Part shown: positions 22,572 through 35,194 of the stretch, one piece after another
How positions within the stretch are numbered: the stretch's first letter is position 1
How the letters are laid out: each line of letters begins with the position of its first letter
Assembly: GCA_965232455.1 (NCBI GenBank)
Contig: OZ246981.1
Span: forward strand, 3,963,911 to 4,027,910
From: Woeseiaceae bacterium
Lineage (GTDB): Bacteria; Pseudomonadota; Gammaproteobacteria; Steroidobacterales; Woeseiaceae
Direction: 5' to 3'
DNA length: 64,000 nucleotides
Notes under the pieces: generated by a model
The model's database searches: none
What the model saw: only the letters and a program-made list of their open reading frames with translations
Told to the model about the DNA's origin: nothing
Program-made: the position numbers and the translations under genes

Positions 22572-22858
22572 TTACGAATGGAACGAACACAAGCCCCCTA
22601 CCGTTCGTACGCCGTATGTCCGCGGCCCTTGCCGCCACCCGCAGGACCGATCGCCGAATGATAGCACCGTGACGCGGACGGACGGCAAACAGGTCGGCGC
22701 AAACCTCTCGAACGACCTATGTTCTGTTAAATTTCGCTTGATAGCTGCCCGTTGCTGTCATAGTTTGGCTGTAGTGACAAAGGCAAACCCGTCGAAAGAC
22801 GGGGACGCAAAACCACCGGTCTAAGGACGTTCTTCGTCTACGACAGCGGAGTCGCCGG

Positions 22859-24073
22859 ATGAACCTAGCGGACACAGGGTTGCGCAAACAACCGTTTCGT
22901 ACCCATGGCAAGCCACTGGTGCTTGTGCCGTATGCCGCACAGAGAAACGCCGCCCGGTTTCTCGACGATACCTGCGTCAACAAACACGGCCTGGGACTAT
23001 TTCACGGCCCGCCCCTCTCGGGAAAAACGACGATCGTGCAGCAATTCGCAAGTTCGCTGCCGCGCGACCACGCAGTTGCCGTCGTCGATGGAGCGCGCAC
23101 GGATCCGGACAAGCTACTGAAGCAGATTCTGAGCCAGTTCGGTTACGACCAGGGCGTCAATACGGCCAGTGAACGTTTCAACATGATCCGGGTGGTCGCC
23201 TTGCAGCAGGCCGCAACCGGCCGGCCGCCGGTGCTCGTCATCGAGAACGTCCACAAGATGACGCCGATACTGCTGGAGATGCTTTGCGAGCTGGCCGAGA
23301 TGTCGGTCGATAGAACCAGCGCACTCAGGATCATTCTTGTGAGTGATCATCCGATGCTGCCCATTGTGGAAGCGCCGGCGATGCAATCGATCGAGAACCG
23401 CCTGACCGGCAAGTTCCTCTTGAAGCCGTTGACGCGGACCGAGACGGCTATTTACGCGCACAAGAAACTCAAGAGCGGCGGCTGTTACAACCCGAGGGCC
23501 GTGATGCCGCCGGCGGTGTGCAATCGCTTGCATTCGGCGTCGGGCGGCTGGCCCGGCGTTATCGACCGGCTGGCAATGATGGCGCTGGCGAAAGCCGAAC
23601 ACGTTCCCTTGCTGGTCGAACACATCCCGAAAAGGCTCCAGAAAGACAAGAAGCCACCCAACGTCGTCACCCCCCCACCGCAGCTCATCCTGACCTACAA
23701 GCACAAGATGCTGGGAAAGATCAGTCTCGACAGGCCGCGCTATTTGATCGGCCGAAACGCGCATTGCGAAATCGAGATCGTCCACGAATGGATCAGCCGG
23801 CAACACGCCATCATCGTCCGCAACAAGAAGTCCACCGTGATCGTGGACCTGAAGAGTCGCAACGGGACGTACGTTAATGACCAACGCGTCAAGAGCCACG
23901 TCCTCATCAACAACGACATCGTTTCCCTGGGCGATCATCGCCTCAAATTCGTCGACCCGTCGGCCACACACCGGACCAGCCTGCGCGGCGCCGGATGGGA
24001 CGCCACCACGCTGACCCAATCTATCCGGGATTCTCGCAAGGTGTTGATCAGGAAGTTGAGGAGGACGAGTTGA
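22859..24073 (+). CDS. AAA ATPase (ExeA/GspA-like) with C-terminal FHA domain
   Basis: Walker A GPPLSGKTT, then an ExeA-like AAA region. The C-terminal region has an FHA-like beta-sandwich pattern (RYLIGRN...NGTYVN). Confidence 0.55.
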   Translation: MNLADTGLRKQPFRTHGKPLVLVPYAAQRNAARFLDDTCVNKHGLGLFHGPPLSGKTTIVQQFASSLPRDHAVAVVDGARTDPDKLLKQILSQFGYDQGVNTASERFNMIRVVALQQAATGRPPVLVIENVHKMTPILLEMLCELAEMSVDRTSALRIILVSDHPMLPIVEAPAMQSIENRLTGKFLLKPLTRTETAIYAHKKLKSGGCYNPRAVMPPAVCNRLHSASGGWPGVIDRLAMMALAKAEHVPLLVEHIPKRLQKDKKPPNVVTPPPQLILTYKHKMLGKISLDRPRYLIGRNAHCEIEIVHEWISRQHAIIVRNKKSTVIVDLKSRNGTYVNDQRVKSHVLINNDIVSLGDHRLKFVDPSATHRTSLRGAGWDATTLTQSIRDSRKVLIRKLRRTS

Positions 24074-24357
24074 AGAGACGTACCGACCGGACCGTGAGGT
24101 TTGCGCTGAAAGACGGCACGCTCCGAATGCTCGATACGCTTGACAATCCGGATTCGAGGCGTATAGTGCGCGGCCCTATGATCAATTTCATCAACAACGT
24201 GGTGTTTGCAACCGGACCCGGTACCCGGCCGCACGGCATTCGTGCGTCTCGACTCCGAGCGGTTCCTGTGACTCCGAACGTCGGAGCCACGATGCGTTAG
24301 CCTTCCCGTCTTTGTTGCTGGAGGGCTCATGAGAATGACCCCTTCCAGCGCTGAAAG

Positions 24358-24429: not shown

Positions 24430-25293
24430 ATGACTAAGCTTGAGAAAACGAAGCTGAACGGGTCGCCGACGCTGACTGGCATCTGGCTGACCTACCGACA
24501 GAAGATCCTGGCGACGATGAGCATGCTGACACTCGAGCGGCTCTGCGACGTTGCCGTGCCGTTCGTGTTGGGCATCGCGATCAACGACCTCATCGCAGGA
24601 AGCTATCGCGGCATCTGGCTGCTTGCCGCGCTCGAGCTGACCGTGTTGACGATCGGCACGTTGCGTCGGCTGTACGACACGCGCGTCTACGCACGCATGT
24701 ACACCGAAATCGCCGACCGGACGGCGAAGACGTCGACGTTGCCGGTAACCAAGCGGGCCGCAAGGCTGCAGCTCGGACGGGAACTCGTCGACTTTTTCGA
24801 GTGGGAGCTGCCGCAGCTCGTCGCGGCGATAATCGGGATCGTCGGAGCGTTCGCGATGTTGCTGTATCTGCTGCCGCTCGTCGGCGGGATCAGCGTGCTG
24901 ATTGCCGGATTGATCGGGCTGGTGTTCGTCGCGAGCAAACGCCGCATGTTCGGGCTCAACAAGCTCTTGAACAACGAGCTGGAACGGCAGGTCACGATGC
25001 TCGAGCGCGATACGGACATTTCGCGCCACCTGCATCTTGGCCGGCTCGCAAGATGGCGTATTCACCTGTCGGACATGGAGGCAGCCAACTTCGCGTTGGC
25101 AGAGCTGATGCTGGCCGCACTGATCATCGGTGCCGTCGTCATCACGACCGGGACGGGAATGTCGGTAGGCGGGGTATTCGCCGTGCTGACTTACCTGATC
25201 GACCTGGCGGAAGGACTCATTGTCCTGCCATGGACGTATATGCAGTCAATCCGTGCTCAGGAGATCGGTGGCCGTATGGCGGCTTCGCAATGA
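24430..25293 (+). CDS. ABC exporter transmembrane domain protein lacking a nucleotide-binding domain
   Basis: Six-TM ABC_membrane-like profile over 287 aa. No NBD in the ORF or downstream. Confidence 0.45.
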   Translation: MTKLEKTKLNGSPTLTGIWLTYRQKILATMSMLTLERLCDVAVPFVLGIAINDLIAGSYRGIWLLAALELTVLTIGTLRRLYDTRVYARMYTEIADRTAKTSTLPVTKRAARLQLGRELVDFFEWELPQLVAAIIGIVGAFAMLLYLLPLVGGISVLIAGLIGLVFVASKRRMFGLNKLLNNELERQVTMLERDTDISRHLHLGRLARWRIHLSDMEAANFALAELMLAALIIGAVVITTGTGMSVGGVFAVLTYLIDLAEGLIVLPWTYMQSIRAQEIGGRMAASQ

Positions 25294-25429
25294 GCGTGCG
25301 TGGCTCCCGGTCGGGAGCCACGCTCGACTCGAACTGGCGACCCGGGGAAACAACGAAGATCGAACCGCTACAGGTACTCCGGCTTTTTGTGTTATACAAG
25401 CCAAACTCCGATTCACTTTGTAATAGCCA

Positions 25430-25828
25430 TTGCGCGACGAACCACTCAACATCGCCGGCCGAATTCGTGCCGCTCGTATGCGCGCGCAGATGGAACCGGC
25501 CGCCCTGAGAGCGGCGTTGCGCGAATACGGGATCGACCTGTCCAAGACCGGTTTGCACCGACTCGAAACAACCGAACCCAAGAACCCGAACCTGAGGATC
25601 ATCGAGGCGATAGCGGAGATCACCAACGTGTCTCCAGGATGGATCCTCTTTGGAAAAGGCCCAAGCGTTCCCGATACGGAGGTCGGCTCCGCTATACGCA
25701 ATCGCGTGATTGACACCATTGAGCTGATGGCAGGTGCACTGGATTTAACCGTTCGTCAGGAATCGACGCTACATAATTGGCTGAAATCGGTTCGCACGAC
25801 GAAACCGAAACGCATCAAGAAGCCGTAG
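25430..25828 (+). CDS. XRE-family helix-turn-helix transcriptional regulator
   Basis: HTH region LNIAGRIRAARMRAQMEPAALRAALREYGIDLSKTGLHRLE. Sits immediately upstream of the tRNA array promoter. Confidence 0.6.
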   Translation: MRDEPLNIAGRIRAARMRAQMEPAALRAALREYGIDLSKTGLHRLETTEPKNPNLRIIEAIAEITNVSPGWILFGKGPSVPDTEVGSAIRNRVIDTIELMAGALDLTVRQESTLHNWLKSVRTTKPKRIKKP

Positions 25829-25876
25829 TCGTTCAGACGCTGTTCACTTTTTCGGAACTTCTGTTCACTTTAGTAG

Positions 25877-25904
25877 TTGACAGATCTTTTTCTACGCGTA
25901 TACT
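25877..25904 (+). promoter_or_regulatory. Sigma70-type promoter (TTGACA-16-TATACT) flanked by direct repeats CTGTTCACTTT
   Basis: Near-consensus -35 and -10 hexamers. Two copies of CTGTTCACTTT lie just upstream, a candidate operator for the adjacent XRE regulator. The promoter points into the tRNA array. Confidence 0.5.
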
Positions 25905-26159
25905 CCCGTCCACTATGAATTACTTCATTCAACAACCCGGTTTACCAACCGCCGCCAAACAGCGCTGGCAGTCTTATGCCAACGTCGATGGAGACGGCGG
26001 CGCTCGCCTGTCCGGTATGAACGTCATACCGGCGCATACGGCGTTTAACCGTTGTGATTCGCTCGCCACGATTAGTGGGGAACCGATGACTTAGCCTTCC
26101 TGAGAACATTTCCTGGAAGGCTCGAATATCGAACCTTCCAGGGAAACTCCAACAAGAGA

Positions 26160-26193
26160 CCCCGGTCGGTTCACACCCACCGGGGTTTTTTTA
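26160..26193 (+). terminator. Terminator/attenuator hairpin
   Basis: Stem CCCCGGT/ACCGGGG with a 12-nt loop and a T8 run. A second 9-bp hairpin lies at 26112-26142 (CCTGGAAGG...CCTTCCAGG). Confidence 0.5.
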
Positions 26194-26225
26194 TGCCCGG
26201 CGGAACGCTCTTTAACAATGTGGAT

Positions 26226-26302
26226 TGTGTAGACGTTGGGGCAGAGCCTTTGTCCTCCATGAGGATGGGGAAAGGCTGCGGCACTCAGACTTAGGCCCGT
26301 GC
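26226..26302 (+). ncRNA. Unclassified structured RNA-like element closed by a 10-bp terminal stem
   Basis: GTTGGGGCAG...CTGCCCCAAC encloses about 57 nt with internal hairpins. It is not foldable as a canonical tRNA. Confidence 0.25.
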
Positions 26303-26366
26303 GCGTATGCGCCTGCCCCAACGTGCTGACGTGGATCGACCGCGCGTTTGCCCGAGTCCGGTTCAC

Positions 26367-26525
26367 CGCCAGCAAAGATGTTTCAATGGAGCGGCTATTA
26401 CCGGCGAAATAGCCCGGCTGTAAACCGGGTGCCTCTTGGCTGTGCGGGTTCACCAAACGCGCCAGCGTTTAGGACGCGCGAAGCGCGCCCCGCAGGGGTG
26501 AGAATCGGCGCCAGACGATTCTAAT
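26367..26525 (+). tRNA. tRNA-Tyr(GTA) interrupted by a 76-nt structured module in the T-loop
   Basis: Acceptor GGAGCGG/CTGCTCC, discriminator A and CCA. Anticodon arm CCCGG-CTGTAAA-CCGGG and a long variable arm. After GGTTCA the T-loop is split by AAACGCGCCAGCG...GATTCTAATC. Confidence 0.5.
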
Positions 26526-26603
26526 CAACTCCTACCTGCTCCACCACCCAGATGAGTCGTCCAGGCGACGACGGCGGACTGTTAATCCGCGCTGAGCGAG
26601 GTT
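26526..26603 (+). tRNA. tRNA-Asn(GTT)
   Basis: Acceptor CCCAGAT/ATCTGGG, anticodon arm GCGGA-CTGTTAA-TCCGC, T-arm CGAGG-TTCGAGT-CCTCG, encoded CCA. Directly abuts the previous tRNA. Confidence 0.7.
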
Positions 26604-26604
26604 C

Positions 26605-26678
26605 GAGTCCTCGATCTGGGGCCAAGGCTCTGTGGTGAAATGGGATCACATGCCCCTGTCACGGGCAATTCCGGGGAT
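26605..26678 (+). tRNA. tRNA-Asp(GTC)
   Basis: Acceptor GGCTCTG/TAGAGCC, D GTGA..TCAC, anticodon arm TGCCC-CTGTCAC-GGGCA, T-loop ATCGAAA, CCA. Confidence 0.75.
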
Positions 26679-26684
26679 CGAAAC

Positions 26685-26755
26685 CCCGTAGAGCCGCCAA
26701 ACAACTGTCCGGGTACGGGGTACAGCCGGTCCTTACAAGACCAGCTTGCTGAGTT
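26685..26755 (+). tRNA. tRNA-Val(TAC)
   Basis: Acceptor TGTCCGG/ACGGACA, anticodon loop CTTACAA, T-arm CTGAG-TTCGAGT-CTCAG, CCA. Confidence 0.55.
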
Positions 26756-26762
26756 CGAGTCT

Positions 26763-26848
26763 CAGACGGACAACCAGGTCTATGCGGGTGTGGCGGAAGC
26801 AGGCAGACGCGCCGGGTTCAGATTCCGGTGTCTCATGACGTGTGGTTT
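26763..26848 (+). tRNA. tRNA-Leu(CAG), class II
   Basis: Acceptor GCGGGTG/CACCCGT with G1:U72. Anticodon arm CCGGG-TTCAGAT-TCCGG, variable-arm hairpin GTC-TCAT-GAC, 86 nt, CCA. Confidence 0.55.
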
Positions 26849-26852
26849 CGAG

Positions 26853-26928
26853 GCCCTCCACCCGTACCAGATTGGGGGGTGCTCAAGGGTAAGCTGGTTT
26901 CCCTTGCAAGGAGACTGTATGCGCGGAG
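26853..26928 (+). tRNA. tRNA-Ala(TGC)
   Basis: Acceptor GGGGGGT/ATCCTCC with the G3:U70 identity pair. Anticodon loop CTTGCAA, T-arm CGCGG-AGCGTTA-CCGCG, CCA. Confidence 0.7.
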
Positions 26929-26934
26929 CGTTAC

Positions 26935-27066
26935 CGCGATCCTCCACCAGATGCTGCGGCCGTCGTTTAAAGGCCAGGACAACGGTTGTTGATTCGCGGC
27001 TTCGCCGCTCACCTTTCACGCGTACTCGCTGACGCTCGTACGCCTGTTGGACGATTATGCCGGGTT
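26935..27066 (+). tRNA. tRNA-like gene with about 55-nt internal insertion (identity unresolved)
   Basis: Acceptor GCGGCCG/TGGCCGT with two G:U pairs, T-arm CCGGG-TTCAAGT-CCCGC, CCA. The 132-nt length implies an intervening segment. Confidence 0.35.
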
Positions 27067-27067
27067 C

Positions 27068-27144
27068 AAGTCCCGCTGGCCGTACCACGCTCCTATCGTC
27101 TAGTCGGACCAGGACACCACTCTTTCAAGGTGGAGACCGGGGAT
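27068..27144 (+). tRNA. tRNA-Glu(TTC)
   Basis: Close match to the canonical tRNA-Glu body (GTCTAG..GGAC, CTTTCAA). T-loop variant ATCGTAG, CCA. Confidence 0.8.
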
Positions 27145-27150
27145 CGTAGC

Positions 27151-27219
27151 CCCGTAGGAGTACCAGACAATGTTGAGGTAGCCGAGGAGGCATTTGGACT
27201 GTGACCCCGACTCAGCGGT
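27151..27219 (+). tRNA. tRNA-His-like (GTG), atypical
   Basis: Anticodon loop CTGTGAC. Ambiguous 3' end, no G-1, one acceptor mismatch. Confidence 0.35.
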
Positions 27220-27220
27220 T

Positions 27221-27290
27221 CGAGTCCGCGCCTCACCCCACGATGCGGAGCTGGGAGTACACGCAGGCTGCAACCCTCCGTTCGACGGTT
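27221..27290 (+). tRNA. tRNA-Cys(GCA)
   Basis: Perfect acceptor GATGCGG/CCGCATC, anticodon loop CTGCAAC, T-arm GACGG-TTCGAGT-CCGTC, CCA, 70 nt. Confidence 0.55.
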
Positions 27291-27292
27291 CG

Positions 27293-27356
27293 AGTCCGTC
27301 CCGCATCTCCAACTCTCTGTAGCGTAATTTGGTGACCCGCCCGCAGGGTGAGCGCA
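27293..27356 (+). other. Stand-alone copy of the structured module flanked by a 7-bp terminal stem
   Basis: TCTCTGT...CCCGCAGGGTGAGCGCAGCGAATC...GCAGAGA. Same core as the T-loop inserts. Confidence 0.3.
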
Positions 27357-27367
27357 GCGAATCACTC

Positions 27368-27443
27368 CTGCCGCAGAGACCGGATAACTGCGCTGTAGCT
27401 CAACGGTCAGAGCATCCGTCTGATACACGGGAGGCAGGTGGTT
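27368..27443 (+). tRNA. tRNA-Ile(GAT)
   Basis: D GCTC-AACGGTCA-GAGC, anticodon arm TCCGT-CTGATAC-ACGGG, T GGTGG-TTCGACT-CCACT, CCA. U1:G72. Confidence 0.75.
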
Positions 27444-27444
27444 C

Positions 27445-27515
27445 GACTCCACTCAGCGCGACCACGCTTCGACTGTTAGTGCAGTCCCGTCGTTGCCATC
27501 GACCGGTGCCGGGTG
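27445..27515 (+). tRNA. tRNA-Gly(GCC)
   Basis: Perfect acceptor GCTTCGA/TCGAAGC, anticodon loop TTGCCAT, T-arm CCGGG-TGCGATT-CCCGG, CCA. Confidence 0.6.
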
Positions 27516-27516
27516 C

Positions 27517-27588
27517 GATTCCCGGTCGAAGCTCCACGCCCGACAAGCATTAACGGTGATGCACCGGCTTTGTAACCCGGAGAACGGG
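27517..27588 (+). tRNA. tRNA, probable Thr(TGT); no encoded CCA
   Basis: Acceptor GCCCGAC/GTTGGGC, T-loop ATCGTTA. The anticodon stem is imperfect. Confidence 0.35.
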
Positions 27589-27597
27589 GATCGTTAC

Positions 27598-27673
27598 CTC
27601 GGTTGGGCACAATACGATCGCGCAGTAGCTCAACGGTCAGAGCGGCACCCTCATAAGGTGCGAGGTGCGGGTT
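27598..27673 (+). tRNA. tRNA-Met(CAT)
   Basis: Anticodon arm GCACC-CTCATAA-GGTGC, T GCGGG-TTCAACT-CCCGC, CCA. C1:U72 mismatch. Confidence 0.75.
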
Positions 27674-27676
27674 CAA

Positions 27677-27819
27677 CTCCCGCCTGCGCTACCAGATACG
27701 GTGACCAACCGGATCGGAGTCTTCCCTGCGAAGGAAGACCGTGCAGGTTGGAACGCAAGCTTCGCTCGCTCACCGCCGCTATGCGGCGGTGTCTGTCGCA
27801 GCGCGTTGTGCTGCTCGGC
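27677..27819 (+). tRNA. tRNA-Arg(GCG) with 72-nt T-loop insert
   Basis: Acceptor ACGGTGA/TCGCCGT, anticodon arm TCTTCC-CTGCGAA-GGAAGA, T-stem GCAGG/CCTGC. The insert contains hairpin CCGCCGC-TAT-GCGGCGG. Confidence 0.5.
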
Positions 27820-27820
27820 T

Positions 27821-27893
27821 GAGTCCTGCTCGCCGTGCCAAACCCTCTCCGGTGGACCCGGTGGCGGCGCTTCGAACGCTGCTTAAGGAAGTT
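27821..27893 (+). tRNA. tRNA-Arg(TCG)
   Basis: Perfect acceptor ACCCTCT/AGAGGGT, anticodon loop CTTCGAA, T GGAAG-TTCGATT-CTTTC, CCA. Confidence 0.6.
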
Positions 27894-28173
27894 CGATTCT
27901 TTCAGAGGGTGCCAGATTCAAGGTGCTTCCTATCGAAGCCGGGCCACCAGACCCGTCGCAGATGCTGGGAGACGTAAGTCCGGGGGTGAAATACCCCTGA
28001 TTACTGAAGGCTGCGCTGTTTGGACAGCAAGCAGTCTTGAACCGCGACCGGCATAGTCGGCCGACAGAAGTACGAGCGTCAGCGAGCACGCCCGAAGGGT
28101 GAGCGGCGCTGCCGCGAATCAAAACTGGGCCGGTGGCAACGCCGATGTAGCTGAGAAGGATTAGCGCCGAGTT
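27894..28173 (+). other. Unresolved tRNA-like/structured block containing another module copy (28060-28125)
   Basis: Multiple hairpins (CCGGGGGTGAAATACCCCTG, TCGGCCGA). Module core CCCGAAGGGTGAGCGGCGCTGCCGCGAATC. No canonical cloverleaf recovered by eye. Confidence 0.3.
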
Positions 28174-28250
28174 GTAGCCGAGGCATCCTGACAATCCTCC
28201 GTAGCTCAAGCGGGCAGAGCACCGGGCTTTTAACCTGTGAGATGTCGGAT
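28174..28250 (+). tRNA. tRNA-Lys(TTT)
   Basis: Acceptor TCCTCCG/CGGGGGA, anticodon loop CTTTTAA, T-arm GTCGG-ATCGTGG-CCGAC, CCA. Confidence 0.7.
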
Positions 28251-28255
28251 CGTGG

Positions 28256-28345
28256 CCGACCGGGGGAACCAGACACGGAAGGTAAACCGGACAGGCGTGC
28301 CGGAGGCGGTTGCTACCCTACCTGATCGCTCACGCGGTTGTGATT
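28256..28345 (+). tRNA. Class II tRNA, probable Ser(GCT)
   Basis: Acceptor GGAAGGT/GCCTTCC, 90 nt, T-loop TTCGAGT, CCA. The anticodon stem is imperfect. Confidence 0.4.
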
Positions 28346-28351
28346 CGAGTT

Positions 28352-28422
28352 CACTGCCTTCCTCCAAACGCCACCTCGTGTGCTGGGCATAGACGAGATT
28401 CCAAACCTTGTCGTGTTGGGTT
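28352..28422 (+). tRNA. tRNA, probable Trp(CCA)
   Basis: Acceptor ACCTCGT/ACGGGGT, loop TTCCAAA, T TTGGG-TTCGATT-CCTGA, CCA. Confidence 0.4.
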
Positions 28423-28428
28423 CGATTC

Positions 28429-28499
28429 CTGAACGGGGTGCCAACCAATCGCGGTGTGTACAGGGTACCGACCGGATTCTGAGTCCGTGAGCGAGAGTT
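28429..28499 (+). tRNA. tRNA-Gln(CTG)
   Basis: Acceptor CGCGGTG/CACCGCT with a C1:U72 mismatch. Anticodon loop TTCTGAG, T GAGAG-TTCGAAT-CTTTC, CCA. Confidence 0.5.
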
Positions 28500-28654
28500 C
28501 GAATCTTTCCACCGCTACCAACCGGATGCGTCGAGATCAGGGATCGGAAGAGGCTTTGACCCTTGGAGATACGGTTCGAGTCCGTACGGCGCTGCCATGC
28601 TCCACTAGCCCAACCGGCGGAAGTGTCGGACTTAAACACCGTCAGGTCTAGGTT
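28500..28654 (+). other. Two tRNA-like units, unresolved
   Basis: Complete T-arms TACGG-TTCGAGT-CCGTA and GTCTA-GGTTCGAT-TAGAC, each followed by ...CCA. No matching 5' acceptor strands were found. Confidence 0.3.
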
Positions 28655-29019
28655 CGATTAGACGATGGCGTACCAGCTCTCGGTTTTTATCAAATTCAAG
28701 GTCATCGACTTCGGTCGGGGCCTCGTTTAGCGGCCTGGCGCTGCTAACCGTCGGCGACGGCGGGAAAGGAATGCAGCACTGCATTTCGCCGAGCCATTGC
28801 GCTCGGTCAATCCAGGCAAGTCCGGCCTCCCGAGTTCTCGATACGTCGGGAATAGCGGCGAAGTGATGCGGATGACTCGCATCGTTAGTCGTGAGGGGCA
28901 ACGGATAGTGCAGGTGTGCGAGCTTCGCAAACAAGTGCGCTTGTGCAGAAATCCGGGGAGTCGGCGTGCAGCCGACGTCCTGGCTTTCCGTCTAGTAGCC
29001 GGCGGGTGAAAGACATTCG

Positions 29020-29046
29020 GCAAGTGGCCGCCTCGCGGCCACTTGC
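29020..29046 (+). promoter_or_regulatory. Perfect 12-bp hairpin (GCAAGTGGCCGC-CTC-GCGGCCACTTGC) just upstream of tRNA-Asp
   Basis: No T-tract. Candidate processing or structural element. Confidence 0.35.
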
Positions 29047-29054
29047 CACCCCCC

Positions 29055-29129
29055 GCTGCGGTAGCTCAATGGCAGAGCGTCGGATTGTCGATCCGGAAGA
29101 TGTCGGTTCAAACCCGATCCGCAGCGCCA
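29055..29129 (+). tRNA. tRNA-Asp(GTC), second copy
   Basis: Perfect acceptor GCTGCGG/CCGCAGC, D GCTC..GAGC, loop TTGTCGA, T GTCGG-TTCAAAC-CCGAT, CCA. Confidence 0.7.
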
Positions 29130-29202
29130 CACTTGCGAGTGTGTGCTACTCGCGAATTTATCGTCGCGAAGCGACCCTTCTCAACCTGTCTTCGGAGGCA
29201 TT

Positions 29203-29430
29203 ATGAATATCAAGGACATCGTGAAAGACAATACCGTTCGATTCGTCCGGTATCGCCAGGGGGTCGCTTACTACGGCGTCAGCGTACCCACCGAAGGCGA
29301 CTACATCTTTCCCGTTCCGCTCGAGGATATTGGGGACGCCACCCTCGAGCTCGAAGACAAAGCGATCCTGTTCATGCGCTACATCCGACGCGCAATCGGA
29401 GAAGGGTCGTTCGTTCCTCTGGCGTCGTAA
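29203..29430 (+). CDS. Small hypothetical protein (75 aa) embedded in the tRNA array
   Basis: GGAGG RBS 6 nt before the ATG. Clean ORF MNIKDIVKDNTVRFVRYRQGVAYYGVSVP... No recognisable similarity. Confidence 0.4.
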   Translation: MNIKDIVKDNTVRFVRYRQGVAYYGVSVPTEGDYIFPVPLEDIGDATLELEDKAILFMRYIRRAIGEGSFVPLAS

Positions 29431-29437
29431 CTTTTGT

Positions 29438-29513
29438 AGACCGGTAGCTCAGGAAGAAGAGCGCGCGACTGATATTCGCGAGGTCGGCTGTGCAACTCAG
29501 CCTCGGTCTACCA
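29438..29513 (+). tRNA. tRNA-Ile(GAT), second copy
   Basis: Acceptor AGACCGG/TCGGTCT, perfect anticodon arm CGCGA-CTGATAT-TCGCG, atypical T-loop TGCAACT, CCA followed by a T-run. Confidence 0.7.
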
Positions 29514-29519
29514 TTTTTT

Positions 29520-29731
29520 CTGGGAGTAGCTCAGGCTGGTCAGAGTACTCGGTTTGGACCCCAATTTGCCCACGTTGCCGAAAGAACGAAACGGATCGGT
29601 GCAAATTGATCTTTAGTGGAATATGCGGCAGTGCGCTTCCACTCGACCCACTAAAGATCAATCCGCATCCACCCTCTACTTTCTTTGGAAGCACTAGGGC
29701 GGATTGGGTTCGAATCCAGCCTTCCAGACCA
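29520..29731 (+). tRNA. tRNA-like gene interrupted by about 140 nt, including a 15-bp inverted repeat and the CTAAAGATCAATCCGCA element
   Basis: Acceptor CTGGGAG/CTTCCAG plus CCA. Canonical 5' D-arm GCTC-AGGCTGGTCA-GAGT. Internal IR ATTGATCTTTAGTGG...CCACTAAAGATCAAT. 3' GGGTTCGAATCC. Confidence 0.35.
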
Positions 29732-29740
29732 AATTCGAAG

Positions 29741-29971
29741 GGAGACTCGCAAGGTCGGCGTGCTTATCCGGTTTGATCCGAGGAGCGCGCAGCGCGACGA
29801 CAGACGCACGCAGTGCGCCCGCAGGGTGAGCGGCGCAGCCGCGAATCCACCCGGTGATGTCCTCACGGGCGTGGGGGTTCAACCGAGGCGCGTAGCGCCG
29901 ACAGACGGATTCGCGAAGCGAATGCCGCCCGAAGGGCGAGCGCAGCGAGTCCATCCCCTCAGTCTCCTCCA
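29741..29971 (+). tRNA. tRNA-like gene with two module insertions
   Basis: Acceptor GGAGACT/AGTCTCC plus CCA, T-stem GGGGG/CCCTC. Module copies at about 29795-29860 and 29882-29950 (cores CCCGCAGGGTGAGCGGCGCAGCCGCGAATCC and CCCGAAGGGCGAGCGCAGCGAGTC). Confidence 0.35.
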
Positions 29972-29980
29972 AAAGACGAT

Positions 29981-30056
29981 GGTGAGCCTAGCTTAACGGC
30001 AAAGCCCCAGGCCGTGACCCTGGTTGATACCGGTTCAAGTCCGGTGGTTCACCCCA
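29981..30056 (+). tRNA. tRNA-His(GTG)
   Basis: Encoded G-1 opposite C73. Acceptor GTGAGCC/GGTTCAC, perfect anticodon arm CCAGG-CCGTGAC-CCTGG, T ACCGG-TTCAAGT-CCGGT, CCA. Confidence 0.75.
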
Positions 30057-30060
30057 AATT

Positions 30061-30184
30061 GGAGAAGTGGCCGAGTGGCTTAAGGCGCTCGTTAGCTAAA
30101 CTAGAGGGGCGCTGTGTTCCACCCAGGTTCGCACCGAGGAGCGTAGCGACGACAGGCCGAAGGCCCATCCTGGCTTCTCCTCCA
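30061..30184 (+). tRNA. Class II (Leu/Ser-type) tRNA with 34-nt insert in the T-loop
   Basis: Perfect acceptor GGAGAAG/CTTCTCC, class II D-arm GCCGAGTGGCTTAAGGC, T-stem CCAGG/CCTGG. T-loop TTCG-[CACCGAGGAGCGTAGCGACGACAGGCCGAAGGCC]-CAT, CCA. Confidence 0.45.
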
Positions 30185-30188
30185 ACAT

Positions 30189-30328
30189 CCGCCTGTAGCT
30201 CAGAAGGAGCAGAGCAGCTTGTTTGACTCGCTTCGTTCACCCTGCGGACGCACTGCGTGCTTCTGTTGGCGCTTTGCGCCTCGGTGCGAACCAGCAGGCC
30301 GGGGGTTCAAGTCCCTCCAGGCGCTCCA
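30189..30328 (+). tRNA. tRNA-like gene with about 65-nt insertion between anticodon region and T-arm
   Basis: D GCTC-AGAAGGAGC-AGAGC, T GGGGG-TTCAAGT-CCCTC, acceptor CCGCCTG/CAGGCGC with a 1:72 mismatch, CCA. Confidence 0.35.
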
Positions 30329-30332
30329 CTTT

Positions 30333-30406
30333 CCGCTCTTGGCATAGTGGCTGTGCACCTGGCTTTTACCCAGGTGACGGGAGTTCGATTCTCTCAGGGC
30401 GGACCA
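30333..30406 (+). tRNA. tRNA-Lys(TTT), second copy
   Basis: Acceptor CCGCTCT/AGGGCGG, perfect anticodon arm CCTGG-CTTTTAC-CCAGG, T GGGAG-TTCGATT-CTCTC, CCA. Confidence 0.7.
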
Positions 30407-30414
30407 CACAACAT

Positions 30415-30487
30415 GCGGGCATAGCTCAACTGGCAGAGCGCGACGGTGCCAATGTCGAGGTTGTGGACTCGGTCTCCACTGCCCGCT
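30415..30487 (+). tRNA. tRNA-Gly(GCC), second copy (no encoded CCA)
   Basis: Perfect acceptor GCGGGCA/TGCCCGC, D GCTC-AACTGGCA-GAGC, loop GTGCCAA, atypical T-loop CTCGGTC. Confidence 0.65.
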
Positions 30488-30629
30488 CCCAGTCCGCCCA
30501 CGGGGTTGCGTTACTCGGCAACGGCCATTGCGGACTGACATTTATTGCGCTAAAGATCAATCCGCATCAACCATTCTTCCACATTCATCATCGAGGGCGG
30601 ATTGGGTTCGATCCCGGCCCTCTCGACCA
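30488..30629 (+). other. tRNA-like unit carrying the second repeat family (CTAAAGATCAATCCGCA...GGGCGGATTGGGTTCGATCCC)
   Basis: 8-bp stem CAATCCGC/GCGGATTG encloses a variable loop. Ends ...GGCCCTCTCGACCA. Confidence 0.3.
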
Positions 30630-30632
30630 TAT

Positions 30633-30709
30633 TGTCCGATAGCTCAGCAGGGCAGAGCACCGCTCTTACAGAGCGGAGGTCGTCGGTTCGATTCCGACTC
30701 GGATTACCA
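30633..30709 (+). tRNA. tRNA-Val(TAC), second copy
   Basis: D GCTC-AGCAGGGC-AGAGC, perfect anticodon arm CCGCT-CTTACAG-AGCGG, T GTCGG-TTCGATT-CCGAC, CCA. 1:72 mismatch. Confidence 0.55.
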
Positions 30710-30710
30710 G

Positions 30711-30818
30711 GGTTGGGCCAGCGCGCGGCGTTCAGCGGTTCGGGTTCTGATCCCGTCTGGCGCACTCACGCTCCCATCGCACGGTGTGTACCGAGCGAAC
30801 CGTTAGCACTCAACCACC
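30711..30818 (+). other. tRNA-like unit, unresolved
   Basis: Acceptor candidate GGTTGGG/CTCAACC. Internal hairpins. Ends CCACCCA. Confidence 0.25.
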
Positions 30819-30820
30819 CA

Positions 30821-30892
30821 GGGAAATTAGCTCAGTGGGTAGAGCATCAGACCTCTAATCTGAAGTCGCAAGTTCGAATCTTGCATTTCCGC
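30821..30892 (+). tRNA. tRNA-Arg(TCT)
   Basis: D GCTC-AGTGGGT-AGAGC, perfect anticodon arm TCAGA-CCTCTAA-TCTGA, T GCAAG-TTCGAAT-CTTGC. No CCA. Confidence 0.6.
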
Positions 30893-30950
30893 AAATGCCC
30901 TGAAACGGCATCTTGGCAAGGCTTAGGCCCGCGGTTCGAGTCCGCTCCCG
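30893..30950 (+). pseudogene. Truncated tRNA (3' portion only) marking the distal end of the main array
   Basis: GGCCCGCGG-TTCGAGT-CCGC followed by an acceptor-like strand. No matching 5' half. Confidence 0.3.
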
Positions 30951-31429
30951 GGTGAGGATATCGCCCTCCCCGTGTCCGCTGTTAGCAAAGACGTTCGACC
31001 GCCCGAAAGGACGCCAGAGCTGTCCGAGCAGCACGACTGTCGCCGATCAGTGATCCGCCGCGTCGGTCCAGCGGGTCGTCCACGTCGTTTCCGCCTGACA
31101 CTTGTGAATGCTTTGGCGATCACGGGAAAAGGTCGACACCGCGTGCACGATTCGCCCGATCGGCCGGCGCCACCGGTCCGCAGCACTCCTGTGACAGCGG
31201 CCACACATATTCATCCGTCCTGGTCGCAAATGGCGAGGACTCTTTTAACCATAGGTAATAGACGATAAAGGAGGTGATCCAAGTGGCTGGTCTCAGTCGA
31301 CTGGCAGAAGTAGAGCGACGCATTCATGCGCGCAGGACCAGTCATCAGGCGACCGGACCAGCGCGAACACCGCGTCCAAAAAAACGCCCGTCTTTTGACG
31401 GAAACATCAACGAAGAAGGAGAACGCACT

Positions 31430-32572
31430 ATGTGGTTCATGCAAAAATTCATCGTGCGCAAGCACGAACGCGGTCTCCTGTTTAAGGACGGAGACTTCAT
31501 CAAGTTCCTGGAAGCAGGAACTTATCGCTACTTTGGCCTGCGCAGCCGCTACGCGGTAGAGCGTTTCGACCTGTCGGTCGCCGCGTTCGAGCACCGCCTG
31601 GCCGACTACCTGGTCGAGGCTGAACGCGCCGAGGTCGATCGTCTGTTTCACGTCGTTGAGACCCATGCCGACGAAGTCGCGCTGGTCTACCTCAACGAAC
31701 GTGCCGCAGCGATTCTCGGCCCGGCGGAGCGCAAGCTCTACTGGAAAGGCGTGGTTAAAGTTCGCATCGAACGCTTCGACCTCAATGAGGGCATCGCGCT
31801 GGATGCACGCCTGACCAAGCGCCTCGTCAACGGCCGCGATGCACAAGTGCTTGCGGTTGCGGGCAAGGCCGTCTACGCCCGCGTCGTTCCGGACGGTCAT
31901 GTTGGCCTGCTGTACGTTGACGGTGAACTCGCCGAAACCCTGGCGGCCGGCCTGCACGCCTACTGGAACGTTGCCCACGCCGTTGGCGTGGAGCTTGTGG
32001 ACCTGCGCGTCAAGGCACTGGAGGTTCAGGGCCAGGAAATCCTGACCAAGGACAAAGTGGCGCTGCGTATCAACGTGACCGCTACCTACCAGTACGTCGA
32101 CGCGGCGAAAGCCGTTCGCGCGGTCAAGGACCCGCTGGATCAGCTGTACAAAGAGATCCAGTTCGGTCTGCGCGCGGCGGTCGGTACCCGCAAGCTGGAC
32201 GCGCTGCTCGAGGATAAAACCGCAATCGACCGCGACATCGCGGATCACCTCGGCAAGCGTTTCGCTGAGATCGGCCTCAGCGTGATCAGCGTAGGCGTGA
32301 AAGACATCATCCTGCCCGGCGACATGAAGGACCTGCTGGGCAAGGTGGTGGAAGCCGAAAAAGCGGCACAAGCGAACGTCATTCGCCGCCGCGAAGAGAC
32401 CAACGCAACCCGATCACTTCTGAACACCGCAAAAGTGATGGAAAGCAACACCGTTGCGCTGCGTCTCAAGGAACTCGAGACCCTGGAGAAGGTTACTGAA
32501 AACGTCGGTAACCTGTCTGTCGTTGGTGGTCTCGACGGACTGCTGAATGGACTGGTGAACATCAAACAGTGA
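31430..32572 (+). CDS. SPFH/band-7 (slipin-like) domain protein
   Basis: GAAGGAGAA RBS before ATG 31430. Band-7 core and C-terminal coiled-coil typical of slipin/HflKC-like proteins. The longer six-frame ORF is trimmed. Confidence 0.65.
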   Translation: MWFMQKFIVRKHERGLLFKDGDFIKFLEAGTYRYFGLRSRYAVERFDLSVAAFEHRLADYLVEAERAEVDRLFHVVETHADEVALVYLNERAAAILGPAERKLYWKGVVKVRIERFDLNEGIALDARLTKRLVNGRDAQVLAVAGKAVYARVVPDGHVGLLYVDGELAETLAAGLHAYWNVAHAVGVELVDLRVKALEVQGQEILTKDKVALRINVTATYQYVDAAKAVRAVKDPLDQLYKEIQFGLRAAVGTRKLDALLEDKTAIDRDIADHLGKRFAEIGLSVISVGVKDIILPGDMKDLLGKVVEAEKAAQANVIRRREETNATRSLLNTAKVMESNTVALRLKELETLEKVTENVGNLSVVGGLDGLLNGLVNIKQ

Positions 32573-32581
32573 TTCGGCACC

Positions 32582-32619
32582 GGGAGGGTGTGCAACGCAC
32601 CCTCCCAACTTTTTCTACA
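32582..32619 (+). terminator. Rho-independent terminator
   Basis: 9-bp stem GGGAGGGTG/CACCCTCCC with a 7-nt loop, followed by AACTTTTT. Confidence 0.6.
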
Positions 32620-32628
32620 CGGCTGTAG

Positions 32629-32768
32629 CTCAGTGGACAGAGCGCGACTATGCGAAGGTCGAGGTCACAGGTTCACAAAACGCGCCAGCGATTTGGACGC
32701 ACATAGTGCGCCCCGAAGGGGCGAGAGTCGCCCATAGGCGATTCGAGTCAATCTTGTCAGCCGTACCA
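32629..32768 (+). tRNA. tRNA-Arg(GCG) with 66-nt module in the T-loop
   Basis: Perfect acceptor ACGGCTG/CAGCCGT, D GCTC-AGTGGACA-GAGC, anticodon arm CGACT-ATGCGAA-GGTCG. T-stem ACAGG/CTTGT with the loop split as TTCA-[66 nt]-AAT, CCA. Confidence 0.5.
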
Positions 32769-32776
32769 AACATTGA

Positions 32777-32903
32777 TCGGCGCTCGTCCAACGGCAGGAT
32801 GCGAGACTTTGAATCTCGAGATCGCGGTTCGCACCGAGGCGCGTAGCGCCGACAGACGCACGAAGTGCGCCCGCAGAGCAAGCGAAGCGAGTCAATCCAC
32901 GGC
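32777..32903 (+). tRNA. tRNA-Gln(TTG) with 56-nt module in the T-loop
   Basis: Acceptor TCGGCGC/GCGCCGG, perfect anticodon arm CGAGA-CTTTGAA-TCTCG. T-loop TTCG-[CACCGAGGCGCGTAGCGCC...GCGAGTC]-AAT, CCA. Confidence 0.5.
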
Positions 32904-33085
32904 GCCGGGCCAAATTCGTCCGCGTTGTTAATCGAGGATCCGATGGACAGCACGGATTTGTCTTTAGTGGTTTACGTGTAAGTGCGTCGGCGCCACTACC
33001 ACGAAAGTCGAAACAACCCCTGGGTCAGTCGTCTGACGGTAAGACGGCGGATTCGAGCGCCAAGGAACGAACTGCTAAAGAAACA

Positions 33086-34999: not shown

Positions 35000-35111
35000 C
35001 ACCTTCATGCCCCTACTCCACGCCATACCGTCGGAGTTGTCGTCCCAGTGGGTTAATCCGAACCAAGGCTAGAAATCGCGACAATCATAAGATTGCCGAA
35101 ACGGCAAACTT

Positions 35112-35186: not shown

Positions 35187-35194
35187 AATACCAT

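Follow-up and report, generated by a model that had tools for sequence, protein, structure and literature searches.

The tRNA array and its upstream regulator

In marine sediment bacteria we find a control region that combines a regulator gene, a strong promoter, a short ORF, an apparently switchable terminator and an anti-termination signal of the rRNA type, and that stands ahead of a long array of tRNA genes. All of these features are kept in 53 related loci, 25 from genomes and 28 from metagenomes, of Woeseiaceae and other marine Gammaproteobacteria, with 49 distinct leader sequences among them; promoter, operator, ORF, switch segments, terminator and boxA are found together in this set. 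The window, that is, the whole stretch of 64,000 nucleotides analysed here, contains one such locus with the following features.

25386-25398, + strand: candidate extended -10 promoter of the XRE gene (TTTGTGTTATACA), a recurring motif and the left border of the conserved module
25430-25828, + strand: gene for an XRE/Cro-CI-type helix-turn-helix regulator of 132 aa with a TTG start, assigned by HTH matches and homologue names
25841-25871, + strand: candidate operator with GTTCAC (25842-47), CGGAAC (25853-58) and GTTCAC (25863-68), a conserved consensus
25877-25904, + strand: sigma-70 promoter TTGACA-16-TATACT, 11/12 consensus matches
25905-25914, + strand: GC-rich discriminator CCCGTCC and predicted transcription start (about A25912), read from the sequence
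25915-26094, + strand: leader ORF of 59 codons plus TAG, ATG start, open in 53/53 loci
25966-25981, 26012-26032 and 26064-26080, + strand: local RNA hairpins within the ORF, from pairing and covariation
26080-26087, + strand: segment 0 (GAACCGAT, Glu-Pro-Met codons), predicted by folding as long-range partner of the 5' strand of the terminator
26093-26100, + strand: segment 1 (AGCCTTCC), overlapping or abutting the stop codon, from stop context and the 1:2 hairpin
26109-26125, + strand: segment 2 (TTTCCTGGAAGGCTCGA), predicted by folding to pair with segment 1 or segment 3
26129-26145, + strand: segment 3 (TCGAACCTTCCAGGGAA), predicted by folding to pair with segment 2 or, as anti-terminator, with segment 4
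26154-26192, + strand: intrinsic terminator with segment 4 (CCCCGGTCGGTTC, 26160-26172), segment 5 (CCCACCGGGG, 26176-26185) and a T7 run
26207-26218, + strand: rrn-type boxA (GCTCTTTAACAA), exact 12/12 match to the consensus GCUCUUUAACAA
26222-26232, + strand: boxC-like GU-rich stretch (GGATTGTGTAG), conserved in nearly all loci
26233-26324, + strand: conserved structured RNA element with a closing stem of at least 10 pairs and two hairpins, from RNAalifold
26325-38598, + strand: the controlled unit, a co-oriented tRNA array with cargo genes, from ARAGORN and Pfam

The array starts with a decayed tRNA-Thr gene and a tRNA-Tyr gene that is interrupted by a 75-nt insertion, and ARAGORN then reports tRNA genes from 26547 to 35273 of the window. 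With these 19 tRNAs, up to 28 in relatives and an upstream context that differs per locus, the array has the defining traits of the long tRNA arrays known as L-arrays; the leader is followed by 1-28 tRNAs in the loci with enough downstream sequence. The cargo consists of a Band_7 gene, a DJ-1/PfpI-AraC-type HTH gene (34001-34999), an HNH gene, RtcB (36239-37648, Pfam E = 6e-88) and a 307-aa gene without assigned function. Locus L001 has the same gene order and also carries RtcB, and the DJ-1/PfpI-AraC-type HTH gene is absent from the corresponding position there. The genes upstream of the module differ between loci, no similarity extends further upstream of the XRE promoter motif, and a plasmid collection gave matches to a tRNA-Leu segment only. 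Long tRNA arrays are widespread, spread horizontally and are mostly silent. To our knowledge, the only control of such arrays that has been worked out is a repressor in one cyanobacterium, where the sensing of impaired translation is still an open question.

The product of the regulator gene scores just below the Pfam cut-offs for HTH_31 (22 bits, cut-off 27) and HTH_26 (21.2 bits, cut-off 22) and gives a weak DicA-like match. Its 268 homologues at 66-95% identity include some that are named XRE-family or HTH regulators by their sources and several that carry a precomputed PF13560; a look-up of the exact protein returned no record. Almost all leader-carrying loci with enough sequence have this gene immediately upstream in the same orientation, about 50 nt ahead of the promoter/operator region, and the identity of its product goes down to 66% across the loci in which the control elements recur together. 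Its dN/dS is 0.09 at a dS of 1.6. In about 10 loci the motif TTTGTGnTATACA is found some 35-40 nt ahead of its start.

A reading of this DNA made from the sequence alone had described most of the anatomy, and the XRE gene, repeats, promoter, 59-codon ORF, hairpin and terminator are all present, apart from small coordinate slips. The two repeats that it placed after the XRE gene stand there as CTGTTCACTTT at 25840-25850 and 25861-25871. The candidate operator has a pair of direct repeats at a distance of 21 bp that flank an inverted half-site, and follows the consensus gtTcacnTTTTcgGaAcatttgTTcactTTaantGTTGACA over 49 distinct sequences. Within the window the exact operator 10-mer is found at the candidate operator only, and with at most one mismatch it is mildly enriched (5 vs 1.96 expected). 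We infer that the XRE-type protein modulates the promoter via the GTTCAC/GGAAC sites just upstream of the -35 box; judged from the sequence, their position at about -38 to -75 from the predicted start site fits either activation or UP-element occlusion. A third, imperfect repeat upstream of the XRE gene (25404-25419) was considered as an autoregulatory operator and rejected, as it is not conserved in other loci.

The promoter itself was also found as the sequence-only reading had given it, TTGACA-16-TATACT at 25877-25904. In the 53 loci its hexamers are invariant and their spacing is fixed at 16 bp, with a variable spacer sequence. Consensus-like promoters are not unusual in the window alone (3 found vs 2.0 +/- 1.5 expected in 8 kb), and on the + strand between 24200 and 32000 this one is the sole example. 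The decisive evidence that the features are beyond chance is their conservation across loci and not window-only statistics. The ATG follows the -10 box by 9-11 nt in all loci, the predicted 5' leader ahead of it measures at most 4 nt, and there is no Shine-Dalgarno sequence; consequently leaderless-type translation initiation would be required. With its TTGACA-16-TATACT hexamers and GC-rich discriminator, the promoter resembles in sequence the promoters that drive stable RNA genes. Discriminators rich in GC are usually a sign of down-regulation by ppGpp, which would oppose induction by plain amino-acid starvation and is a point against an attenuator.

An open frame with a drifting peptide

The leader ORF is remarkable for its frame. 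Stops number 0, 155 and 147 in the three frames of its 49 unique versions, and its length varies between 48 and 63 codons, hence every net insertion or deletion has been in frame. The comparison of loci indicates that the ORF is under selection to stay open. Selection bias in this count was checked, and loci found by the promoter or hairpin pattern alone all have an intact ORF. The conservation of the small ORF, which the sequence-only reading had suggested comparing, is thus of two kinds: the frame is open in all 53 loci, the amino-acid sequence drifts almost neutrally. Its dN/dS is 0.7-0.9 vs 0.09 for the XRE gene, and third codon positions show no excess variation. By these comparisons the leader peptide is not conserved as a protein. 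At the same time the synonymous sites evolve about seven times slower than those of the XRE gene (dS 0.24 vs 1.6), which points to constraint at the RNA level.

The three hairpins within the ORF have 80.9% of cells paired, compared with at most 46.7% in slid controls, their covariation score was exceeded in 0/500 shuffles, and compensatory change is seen at 10 pairs. When RNAalifold was applied to the ORF in full, it gave no spanning consensus structure; the local hairpins alone stand up.

The composition of the peptide is also unusual. All 20 amino acids occur in 25/49 leader peptides (mean 19.3 kinds, range 17-20), where the null expectations are 1-3.6% for segments of real proteins, 2-6% for a composition model and 8% for shuffles. 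Trp is present in 84% of the peptides (expected 55%) and Cys in 92% (expected 40%), at many and varied positions. The leaders are related by phylogeny, so about 15 semi-independent lineages underlie these figures; when the peptides are collapsed to 15 clusters, all 20 amino acids are present in 5 (P = 0.006 to 0.0001). The ORF contains no codon run for one amino acid, and each rare amino acid occurs about once. Amino-acid diversity did not correlate significantly with array size (rho 0.39, P = 0.12). The near-neutral amino-acid sequence, the presence of all 20 amino acids and a stop codon joined to segment 1 had been overlooked in the sequence-only reading.

Alternative helices, terminator and boxA

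The stop codon context is invariably TAG-CCTTCC or TAA-GCCTTCC, abutting segment 1. From there on the leader RNA offers several mutually exclusive pairings. In the window the predicted energies are -14.4 kcal/mol for the 1:2 hairpin (z -4.1), -23.6 kcal/mol for the 2:3 helix, -17.1 kcal/mol for the 3:4 anti-terminator and -23.6 kcal/mol for the 4:5 terminator (z -5.8). The 2:3 helix corresponds to a hairpin that had been placed at 26112-26142; the hairpin is real as a prediction, but it is not the 9 bp claimed, since its arms at 26109-26125 and 26129-26145 form about 15 pairs. Similarly, a terminator had been given at 26160-26193 with a T8 run. The terminator is present and is picked up by a terminator scan, with a stem at 26154-26185, but its run is T7 (26186-26192).

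In 46 sequences every candidate switch helix reaches 91-97% pairing, well beyond the slid controls. The terminator has 94.8% of cells paired and three compensatory pairs; the 3:4 helix has 96.5% and is nearly invariant; the 0:4 pairing has 92.9% (46 sequences) and zero compensatory changes. The switch segments are almost invariant, hence covariation tests of the alternative helices find almost zero compensatory changes. Two loci (L028 and L016) carry A-to-G changes in segment 2, and both pairings are retained via G-U pairs. The pairing of the alternative helices, as modelled, is compatible with an attenuator, short of proof.

Folding of RNAs of increasing length suggests how the choice could be made. 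Naked nascent RNA is predicted to fold as 0:4 plus 2:3, RNA transcribed up to segment 4 folds as 1:2 plus 3:4 in 22/24 loci, and full-length RNA as 2:3 plus terminator, also in 22/24. For the full-length RNA, the conformation with the terminator is the most stable one (-47 kcal/mol), hence read-through would depend on kinetic trapping. In a ribosome-mask model of the window, segment 4 is sequestered with a probability of 0.63 when the RNA is free or the ribosome stalled, vs 0.04 with the ribosome at the stop codon. Over 47 leaders the means are 0.75 vs 0.38, and the value is lower with the ribosome at the stop codon in 43/47; this equilibrium model gives a clear switch (a drop of at least 0.3) in only 25/47. 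These values refer to the segment 4 core, and a ribosome-scan model that includes the A/G-rich terminator base shows no switch.

The terminator had been described as lying just before the first tRNA. This does not hold: boxA, the boxC-like stretch, the structured element and two decayed tRNA genes intervene before the first ARAGORN tRNA at 26547. BoxA begins 14 nt after the T run, a gap that leaves no room for another promoter. Its 12-mer is exact and at the same position in 20/28 genome loci (21 records, two of which, L001 and L004, represent one place); most metagenome members have it too, and it is identical to the E. coli rrn boxA, 'ugcucuuuaacaa' (PMC2724277, Table 1). RNAalifold on the aligned stretch of 135 nt predicts 27 pairs, 10 of them with compensatory change; 5 of the 27 belong to an invariant hairpin in the boxA-boxC spacer. 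Rfam searches at gathering and permissive thresholds gave no family for either the leader or the element that follows boxA, with His_leader as a sub-threshold match only. BoxA directly after the terminator had escaped the sequence-only reading, and it alters the reading of the whole region.

A possible translation-sensing switch and its alternatives

We put a probability of roughly 60% on the reading that a long, horizontally mobile tRNA array with RtcB ligase has its control module here, with an XRE-gated, ribosome-mediated attenuator followed by processive anti-termination; the array and its RNA-repair ligase would then probably be switched on upon ribosome stalling. The core of this proposal, a regulator-gated promoter and a leader-ORF attenuator ahead of the tRNA array, had already been suggested from the sequence and is now strongly backed by comparative and folding evidence. 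Transcription would proceed from the strong TTGACA-16-TATACT promoter, modulated by the adjacent XRE-type protein. The transcript would start 0-4 nt ahead of the ATG and be translated by leaderless-type initiation on the ORF of 48-63 codons, and it is the act of translating that would matter, not the peptide product. A ribosome at the end of the ORF would cover segments 0 and 1, segments 2 and 3 would pair and segment 4 would stay free, whereupon the 4:5 terminator would form, transcription would stop at the T7 run and the array would be off. With the ribosome stalled earlier or absent, segment 4 would be captured before segment 5 is made, either by segment 3, when 1:2 has formed, or by segment 0, when 2:3 has, and the polymerase would read through. 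BoxA would then emerge and may recruit NusB/NusE, making the polymerase termination-resistant for the long untranslated tRNA array and the Band_7, HNH and RtcB genes. The switch could respond when almost any tRNA is in short supply or cleaved, or when elongation is inhibited in general; almost any tRNA would do because the leader carries nearly every amino-acid kind. The attenuator model also gains support from known biology, as in Anabaena such arrays are silent, respond to translational stress by induction and have RtcB co-regulated (PMC8421152, PMC10272220).

A more far-reaching proposal, which we advance tentatively and with more doubt than confidence, is that the leader ORF is a general tRNA-pool sensor, selected for at least one codon per amino acid. 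If any one tRNA species were depleted or cleaved, the ribosome would stall short of the ORF end and the attenuator would flip, and boxA would then drive expression of the full spare tRNA set and RtcB. Anticodon nucleases, contact-dependent or colicin-type ribotoxins and phage-triggered defence could be the cause. If this were true, the module would be a self-contained "translation rescue" island with a built-in damage detector for all codons, relevant to tRNA-targeting toxins and phage defence, and the all-amino-acid leader would be a new type of attenuator signal, one that responds to any tRNA and not just to a single amino acid. More generally, the module offers a direct physical link, in which a ribosome reading a leader with nearly all codon families would decide on spare tRNAs and an RNA ligase. 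In a compact, portable and testable design, an operator-gated promoter would be followed by a ribosome-mediated attenuator and this by Nus/boxA anti-termination, all three of them classical devices.

One could argue that the 59-codon ORF instead encodes a functional small protein (e.g., a partner of the XRE protein) with its own promoter and terminator, that the array is expressed only by constitutive leakage and that translation is not regulatory. The strictly maintained frame, the conserved C-terminal motif GEPMT and the prediction of the ORF by gene callers in 25 database entries agree with a protein. However, its dN/dS is 0.7-0.87 vs 0.09 in the neighbouring XRE gene, well under half of the residues are conserved (by eye in alignments) where the XRE protein is 70% identical, no Pfam or NCBIfam family matches the peptide, and a homology search returned 25 close relatives, none of them annotated. 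The conserved C-terminal codons moreover overlap segment 0 and a hairpin arm, and a protein would leave unexplained why the stop codon is always joined to segment 1. We regard such a protein as unlikely. A trans-acting factor on the leader RNA (XRE, RtcB, a Nus factor, or uncharged tRNA as in the T-box) could also work the switch in place of the ribosome, with the ORF translated incidentally: the alternative helices would be equally workable with a ligand-stabilised conformer, and several conserved leader hairpins with covariation, along with the strong nucleotide-level constraint (low dS), would suit it. Yet a factor of this kind fails to explain a frame open in 53/53 loci with in-frame indels or a stop codon locked to segment 1, and no T-box or other riboswitch family was matched, permissive thresholds included, which leaves it quite unlikely.

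If promoter, ORF and terminator made up a trans-acting small RNA of about 280 nt, the terminator would be no attenuator and unrecognised internal promoters would drive the array. The terminator is strong, with its GC-rich 13-bp stem and T7 run, and sRNA activity is known for terminated attenuator RNAs such as rnTrpL (PMC7968998). But boxA, 14 nt after the T run and co-conserved with it, makes sense only if polymerase comes from upstream, no consensus-like + strand promoter is found in 26200-32000, and in L013 and L017 the first tRNA directly follows the terminator; we find this explanation improbable. A repressor of the XRE type next to a strong promoter with repeated operators is a typical arrangement in prophages, and tRNA arrays are often found in phages. 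The sequence-only reading had likened the region to prophage immunity regions. On a prophage view, a CI-like repressor would silence a lytic-type promoter and the tRNAs would be phage cargo. The sole match of the XRE protein among PDB sequences, a phage CI, falls short of significance (E = 0.97). The likeness goes no further: neither the XRE protein nor the leader DNA matches any of 50,697 phage records, Pfam scans detect neither integrase nor capsid nor terminase domains in the flanking ORFs tested, the regulator is transcribed in the direction of its target and not divergently, and the module occurs in varied chromosomal contexts without phage genes. A prophage origin of this control has very little to recommend it.

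Closer to the module than prophage immunity regions are amino-acid-operon attenuators, stress-induced long tRNA arrays and the anti-termination leaders of rrn operons. Like the attenuators of amino-acid operons (trp, his, leu, thr and pheA leaders), the array leader would combine a short leader ORF, mutually exclusive hairpins, an intrinsic terminator and a choice made by ribosome position, and the Rfam RF00514 His_leader model aligns weakly to its 2:3 hairpin and terminator (30.7 bits, below the 49-bit threshold). In contrast to them it has no run of codons for a single amino acid, an ORF 3-4 times longer in which almost no amino acid is missing, five segments that give the terminator strand a choice of two other partners, apparently no Shine-Dalgarno sequence or real 5' leader, and tRNA genes and an RNA ligase as targets instead of biosynthetic enzymes. 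In the leaders of ermC/ermB, bmrCD and msrD and in Salmonella mgtL/mgtP, stalling in a short upstream ORF, brought about by antibiotics or scarce charged tRNA, likewise remodels the leader RNA and switches on genes that relieve the translational problem (PMC4191407, PMC10314930, PMC3641672). However, those ORFs are short, with specific arrest motifs or one codon type, whereas the array leader has no evident arrest motif and a composition that suggests sensitivity to any codon.

With L-arrays the unit shares long, co-oriented supernumerary tRNA genes covering most amino acids, horizontal spread and linked rtcB (PMC8421152). The trn operon of Anabaena PCC 7120 with its repressor TrcR is a long tRNA array (L-array) that is silent and induced by translational stress, with RtcB co-regulated (PMC8421152, PMC10272220). 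It resembles the present module in its strong sigma-70 promoter, direct repeats, dedicated small DNA-binding regulator and expected signal of impaired translation. In Anabaena, however, the -10 box and start site fall within the repeats, and the gene for the regulator, a ribbon-helix-helix protein, is located at a distance; in the present module an XRE-type regulator is the direct neighbour, the candidate sites are found upstream of -35, and the promoter is followed by a putative translated attenuator and boxA. A leader ORF, terminator or boxA is not described in PMC8421152, as searched by these terms, or in the abstract and outline of PMC10272220.

The final element recalls the Nus-factor leaders of rrn operons (boxB-boxA-boxC), with an identical boxA 12-mer followed by a GU-rich, boxC-like stretch (PMC2724277). 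As in rrn leaders and in the boxA upstream of CRISPR arrays, it stands at the start of a long untranslated, structured and otherwise Rho-exposed transcript (PMC2724277, PMC7665894). The putative Nus site described here differs from both in preceding a tRNA array and in lying immediately downstream of a putatively regulated intrinsic terminator, so that only polymerases that have passed the attenuator would be modified.

The proposed control module and its related loci

Our analysis suggests that ribosome-mediated attenuation governs the tRNA array of the window, acting downstream of an XRE-gated promoter and upstream of a boxA signal for anti-termination. This is the best-supported mechanism, to which we assign a probability of roughly 0.6; we go no higher, since sequence conservation and predicted folds stand behind it and the rest is inferred. 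The elements named in the sequence-only reading, i.e., the XRE regulator, repeats, promoter, 59-codon ORF, hairpin and terminator, were all found in the sequence, with some corrections: the hairpin has about 15 pairs rather than nine, the T run is T7 and not T8, and the terminator does not lie just before the first tRNA, as the first gene recognised by ARAGORN begins at 26547.

Features of the module in the window
25430-25828, +, XRE-type gene with a TTG start; helix-turn-helix matches slightly below Pfam thresholds
25840-25850 and 25861-25871, two exact CTGTTCACTTT repeats
25877-25904, promoter TTGACA-16-TATACT
25915-26094, leader ORF, ATG to TAG, 59 codons
26109-26125 / 26129-26145, arms of a long hairpin, about 15 pairs
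26154-26185, GC-rich terminator hairpin, followed by a T7 run at 26186-26192
26207-26218, boxA GCTCTTTAACAA, starting 14 bases past the T run, exact match to E. coli rrn boxA

Judged from the window alone, neither the promoter nor the repeat exceeds chance expectation by much, and the case for their reality comes from conservation across loci. In all, 268 proteins are homologous to XRE at 66-95% identity; every one comes from an uncultured marine gammaproteobacterium, in many cases one placed in Woeseiaceae. XRE protein homology was used to gather 28 genome loci, while a metagenome scan by the hairpin sequence alone gave 82 loci, 28 of them with the promoter. TTGAC(A) and GTATACT do not vary in the 53 promoter-bearing loci and the spacing is always 16 bp, whereas the spacer sequence is free to vary; this pattern marks what appears to be a working promoter. 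The -10 box is followed by a GC-rich discriminator (CCCGCCC-like), with the ATG 9-11 nt past the box. In combining a 16-bp spacer with a discriminator rich in GC, the promoter is like those of stable RNAs, for example rrnB P1.

The consensus 5' of the -35 box, GTTCAC-N5-CGGAAC-N4-GTTCAC-TTT, contains a candidate operator, a pair of direct repeats at a distance of 21 bp that flank an inverted half-site (about -38 to -75). Nearly all members have the XRE gene about 50 nt upstream in the same orientation, the exceptions being L039 (1-600) and L044 (reverse strand), where promoter and leader have no XRE upstream and the middle operator element is degenerate, and L029, where XRE is split by an insertion. 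This linkage argues that the XRE protein acts at this promoter, and the position of the sites would fit repression and activation alike.

The genes 5' of XRE are different at every locus, and the similarity among loci starts some 40 nt 5' of XRE, at a candidate extended -10 promoter. These observations argue that the module is inserted DNA whose left end is defined. A co-oriented tRNA array follows in every locus of sufficient length, closed by Band_7, HNH and RtcB genes in the window and in the related locus L001, the loci whose sequence reaches that far. The array varies from 1 to 28 tRNA genes across L003-L029 with leader, terminator and boxA intact, which suggests that the control region outlasts its cargo or additionally serves the downstream protein genes. 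L003 has just two tRNAs left, beside HNH and transposases, and L029 (10001-13662), with an insertion of about 3.4 kb in XRE, yet has the largest array seen (28 tRNAs). The protein genes within and after the array of the window (29143-38598, +) are a 95-aa ORF, Band_7/SPFH, an AraC/DJ-1 gene, the HNH nuclease, RtcB and a 307-aa protein that matches no family; the order Band_7, HNH, RtcB, unknown is repeated in L001 (12008-16351).

The proposed terminator switch and the leader ORF

The region from the ORF end to the terminator can be divided into successive segments, numbered 0-5, with alternative partners.

Segments and predicted helices of the putative switch in the window
Segment 0, GAACCGAT, conserved codons for Glu-Pro-Met, at the 3' end of the ORF; possible alternative captor of segment 4
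Segment 2, CCTGGAAGGCT, can pair with segment 1 or segment 3
Segment 3, GAACCTTCCAGGG, can pair with segment 2 or segment 4
Segment 4, CCCCGGTCGGTTC, 5' strand of the terminator, formed with segment 5
Helix 1:2, -14.4 kcal/mol
Helix 3:4, -17.1 kcal/mol
Helix 2:3, -23.6 kcal/mol
Helix 4:5 (terminator), -23.6 kcal/mol

Stop codon and segment 1 are fused in every case, as TAG-CCTTCC or TAA-GCCTTCC. Folded from the stop codon onward, RNA ending at segment 4 is predicted to form 1:2 and 3:4 in 22 of 24 loci; with the end of the ORF added, the predicted helices are 0:4 and 2:3. Both predicted folds tie up segment 4 at a stage when segment 5 has yet to be made. We modelled a translating ribosome by masking its footprint with the stop codon in the A site: the mask removes segments 0 and 1, keeps 2:3 and is predicted to release segment 4. 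The predicted probability of segment 4 being paired upstream falls from 0.63 to 0.04 in the window and on average from 0.75 to 0.38 over 47 leaders, being lowered in 43 of them and by at least 0.3 in 25. All helices are 91-97% paired over 46 sequences, far above slid controls. Compensatory changes are rare because the helices are so conserved, and the alternative pairings are therefore plausible but not proven. Rfam His_leader aligns weakly to the 2:3 hairpin and terminator (30.7 bits, threshold 49), which is common architecture and not family membership.

The sequence-only reading had proposed that conservation of the small ORF be compared. The frame from the conserved ATG is open in 53 of 53 promoter-bearing loci (48-63 codons), against 155 and 147 stops in the other two frames of the 49 unique versions, and the peptide itself is nearly free to change. 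Loci were selected independently of the ORF, thus the count is not circular. The ORF has a dN/dS of 0.7-0.87 with no excess at the third position (0.09 for XRE) and a synonymous divergence about 7-fold below that of XRE, which indicates that selection maintains the open frame and the RNA rather than the peptide. Three local hairpins within the ORF carry compensatory changes; no consensus structure was found across the whole of it.

The composition of the drifting peptides is unusual. They contain on average 19.3 amino-acid kinds, and all 20 occur in 25 of the 49 unique versions, including versions of 48 and 52 residues without mutual sequence relationship. All 20 are found in 1-3.6% of same-length real-protein segments from these loci (mean 17.1 kinds), in 2-6% under a codon-position composition model (17.0-17.8) and in 8% of nucleotide shuffles (17.9). 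Against expectations of 55% for Trp and 40% for Cys, these residues occur in 84% and 92% of the peptides, respectively, mostly once each and at many varied positions. Among 15 clusters at 60% identity, five have all 20 (binomial P = 0.006 to 0.0001), and the mean of cluster medians is 19.1. Diversity above these nulls suggests that every amino acid is selected to be present, as would be predicted if the signal were stalling at any type of codon. A leader peptide limited to 18 kinds or fewer is seen solely with arrays of at most 10 tRNAs; the correlation of diversity with array size is not significant. The weakest link of the attenuation argument is initiation: no Shine-Dalgarno sequence precedes the leader ATG and the inferred 5' leader is at most 4 nt, so translation would have to start in a leaderless-type manner.

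Proposed read-through, boxA and comparison with known arrays

No other consensus-like + strand promoter is present up to 32000 in the window, and the gap between terminator and boxA is too small for one. The array would therefore have to be supplied by read-through past the terminator. Among the 28 genome loci 20 have boxA at the same position, as do most metagenome members; a conserved GU-rich GGATTGTGTAG follows it. The attenuator decision would come first, and polymerases that pass it would then become resistant to termination over a long transcript that is structured and not translated, presumably through Nus-factor binding at boxA. The same role was shown for boxA 5' of CRISPR arrays (PMC7665894).

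The claim of attenuator control appears largely right: it was incomplete, as boxA was missed, and it was coupled to an analogy with prophage immunity regions that we judge wrong, since Pfam scans of flanking ORFs and searches of a phage collection gave nothing in its favour. Closer general biology is offered by long tRNA arrays, which, according to two reports (PMC8421152, PMC10272220), are horizontally spreading and silent; the Anabaena array is described there as induced by translational stress via the ribbon-helix-helix repressor TrcR, which binds repeats over the -10 box, with rtcB co-regulated. In contrast to that description, the module here has an adjacent XRE-type regulator, sites 5' of the -35 box, a putatively translated attenuator and boxA. 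A full-text literature search found no leader-ORF attenuator or all-amino-acid leader described ahead of tRNA arrays, and the all-20 leader is the most original element of the module.

Variants and neighbouring features

The clade of L013 (10652-10760) and L017 (9688-9800) has neither boxA nor the structured element described below, its terminator directly abutting the first tRNA; it also has no segment 0, and its leader peptides are the least diverse (17-18 kinds). In L016 (10762) boxA differs by one base, GCTCTTTATCAA. Between boxC and the first tRNA of the window lies a conserved structured RNA (26233-26324, +) with a closing stem of at least 10 pairs (GTTGGGGCAG/CTGCCCCAAC) and two hairpins, loosely cloverleaf-like. 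RNAalifold predicted 27 pairs in the aligned 135-nt stretch containing it, 10 with compensatory change. It matches no Rfam family and may act as a processing signal or represent a degenerate tRNA-like gene. The first two array genes of the window (26325-26545, +) are damaged and uncalled by ARAGORN and Rfam: tRNA-Thr is a mere remnant, and tRNA-Tyr(GUA) has a 75-nt T-loop insertion (~26453-26527) that L004, L015 and L022 do not share.

Outside the module, a c-di-GMP-I-GGC riboswitch aptamer (22773-22860, +; 71.9 bits, threshold 59) extends up to the start codon of an FHA and AAA-ATPase gene (22859-24073). A second near-consensus promoter, TTGACA-16-TATAGT (24140-24167, +), is located 5' of an ABC_membrane_3 gene (24430-25293), and directly 3' of this gene there is a perfect 10-bp inverted repeat (25300-25321), about 65 nt 5' of the left border of the module (25386).
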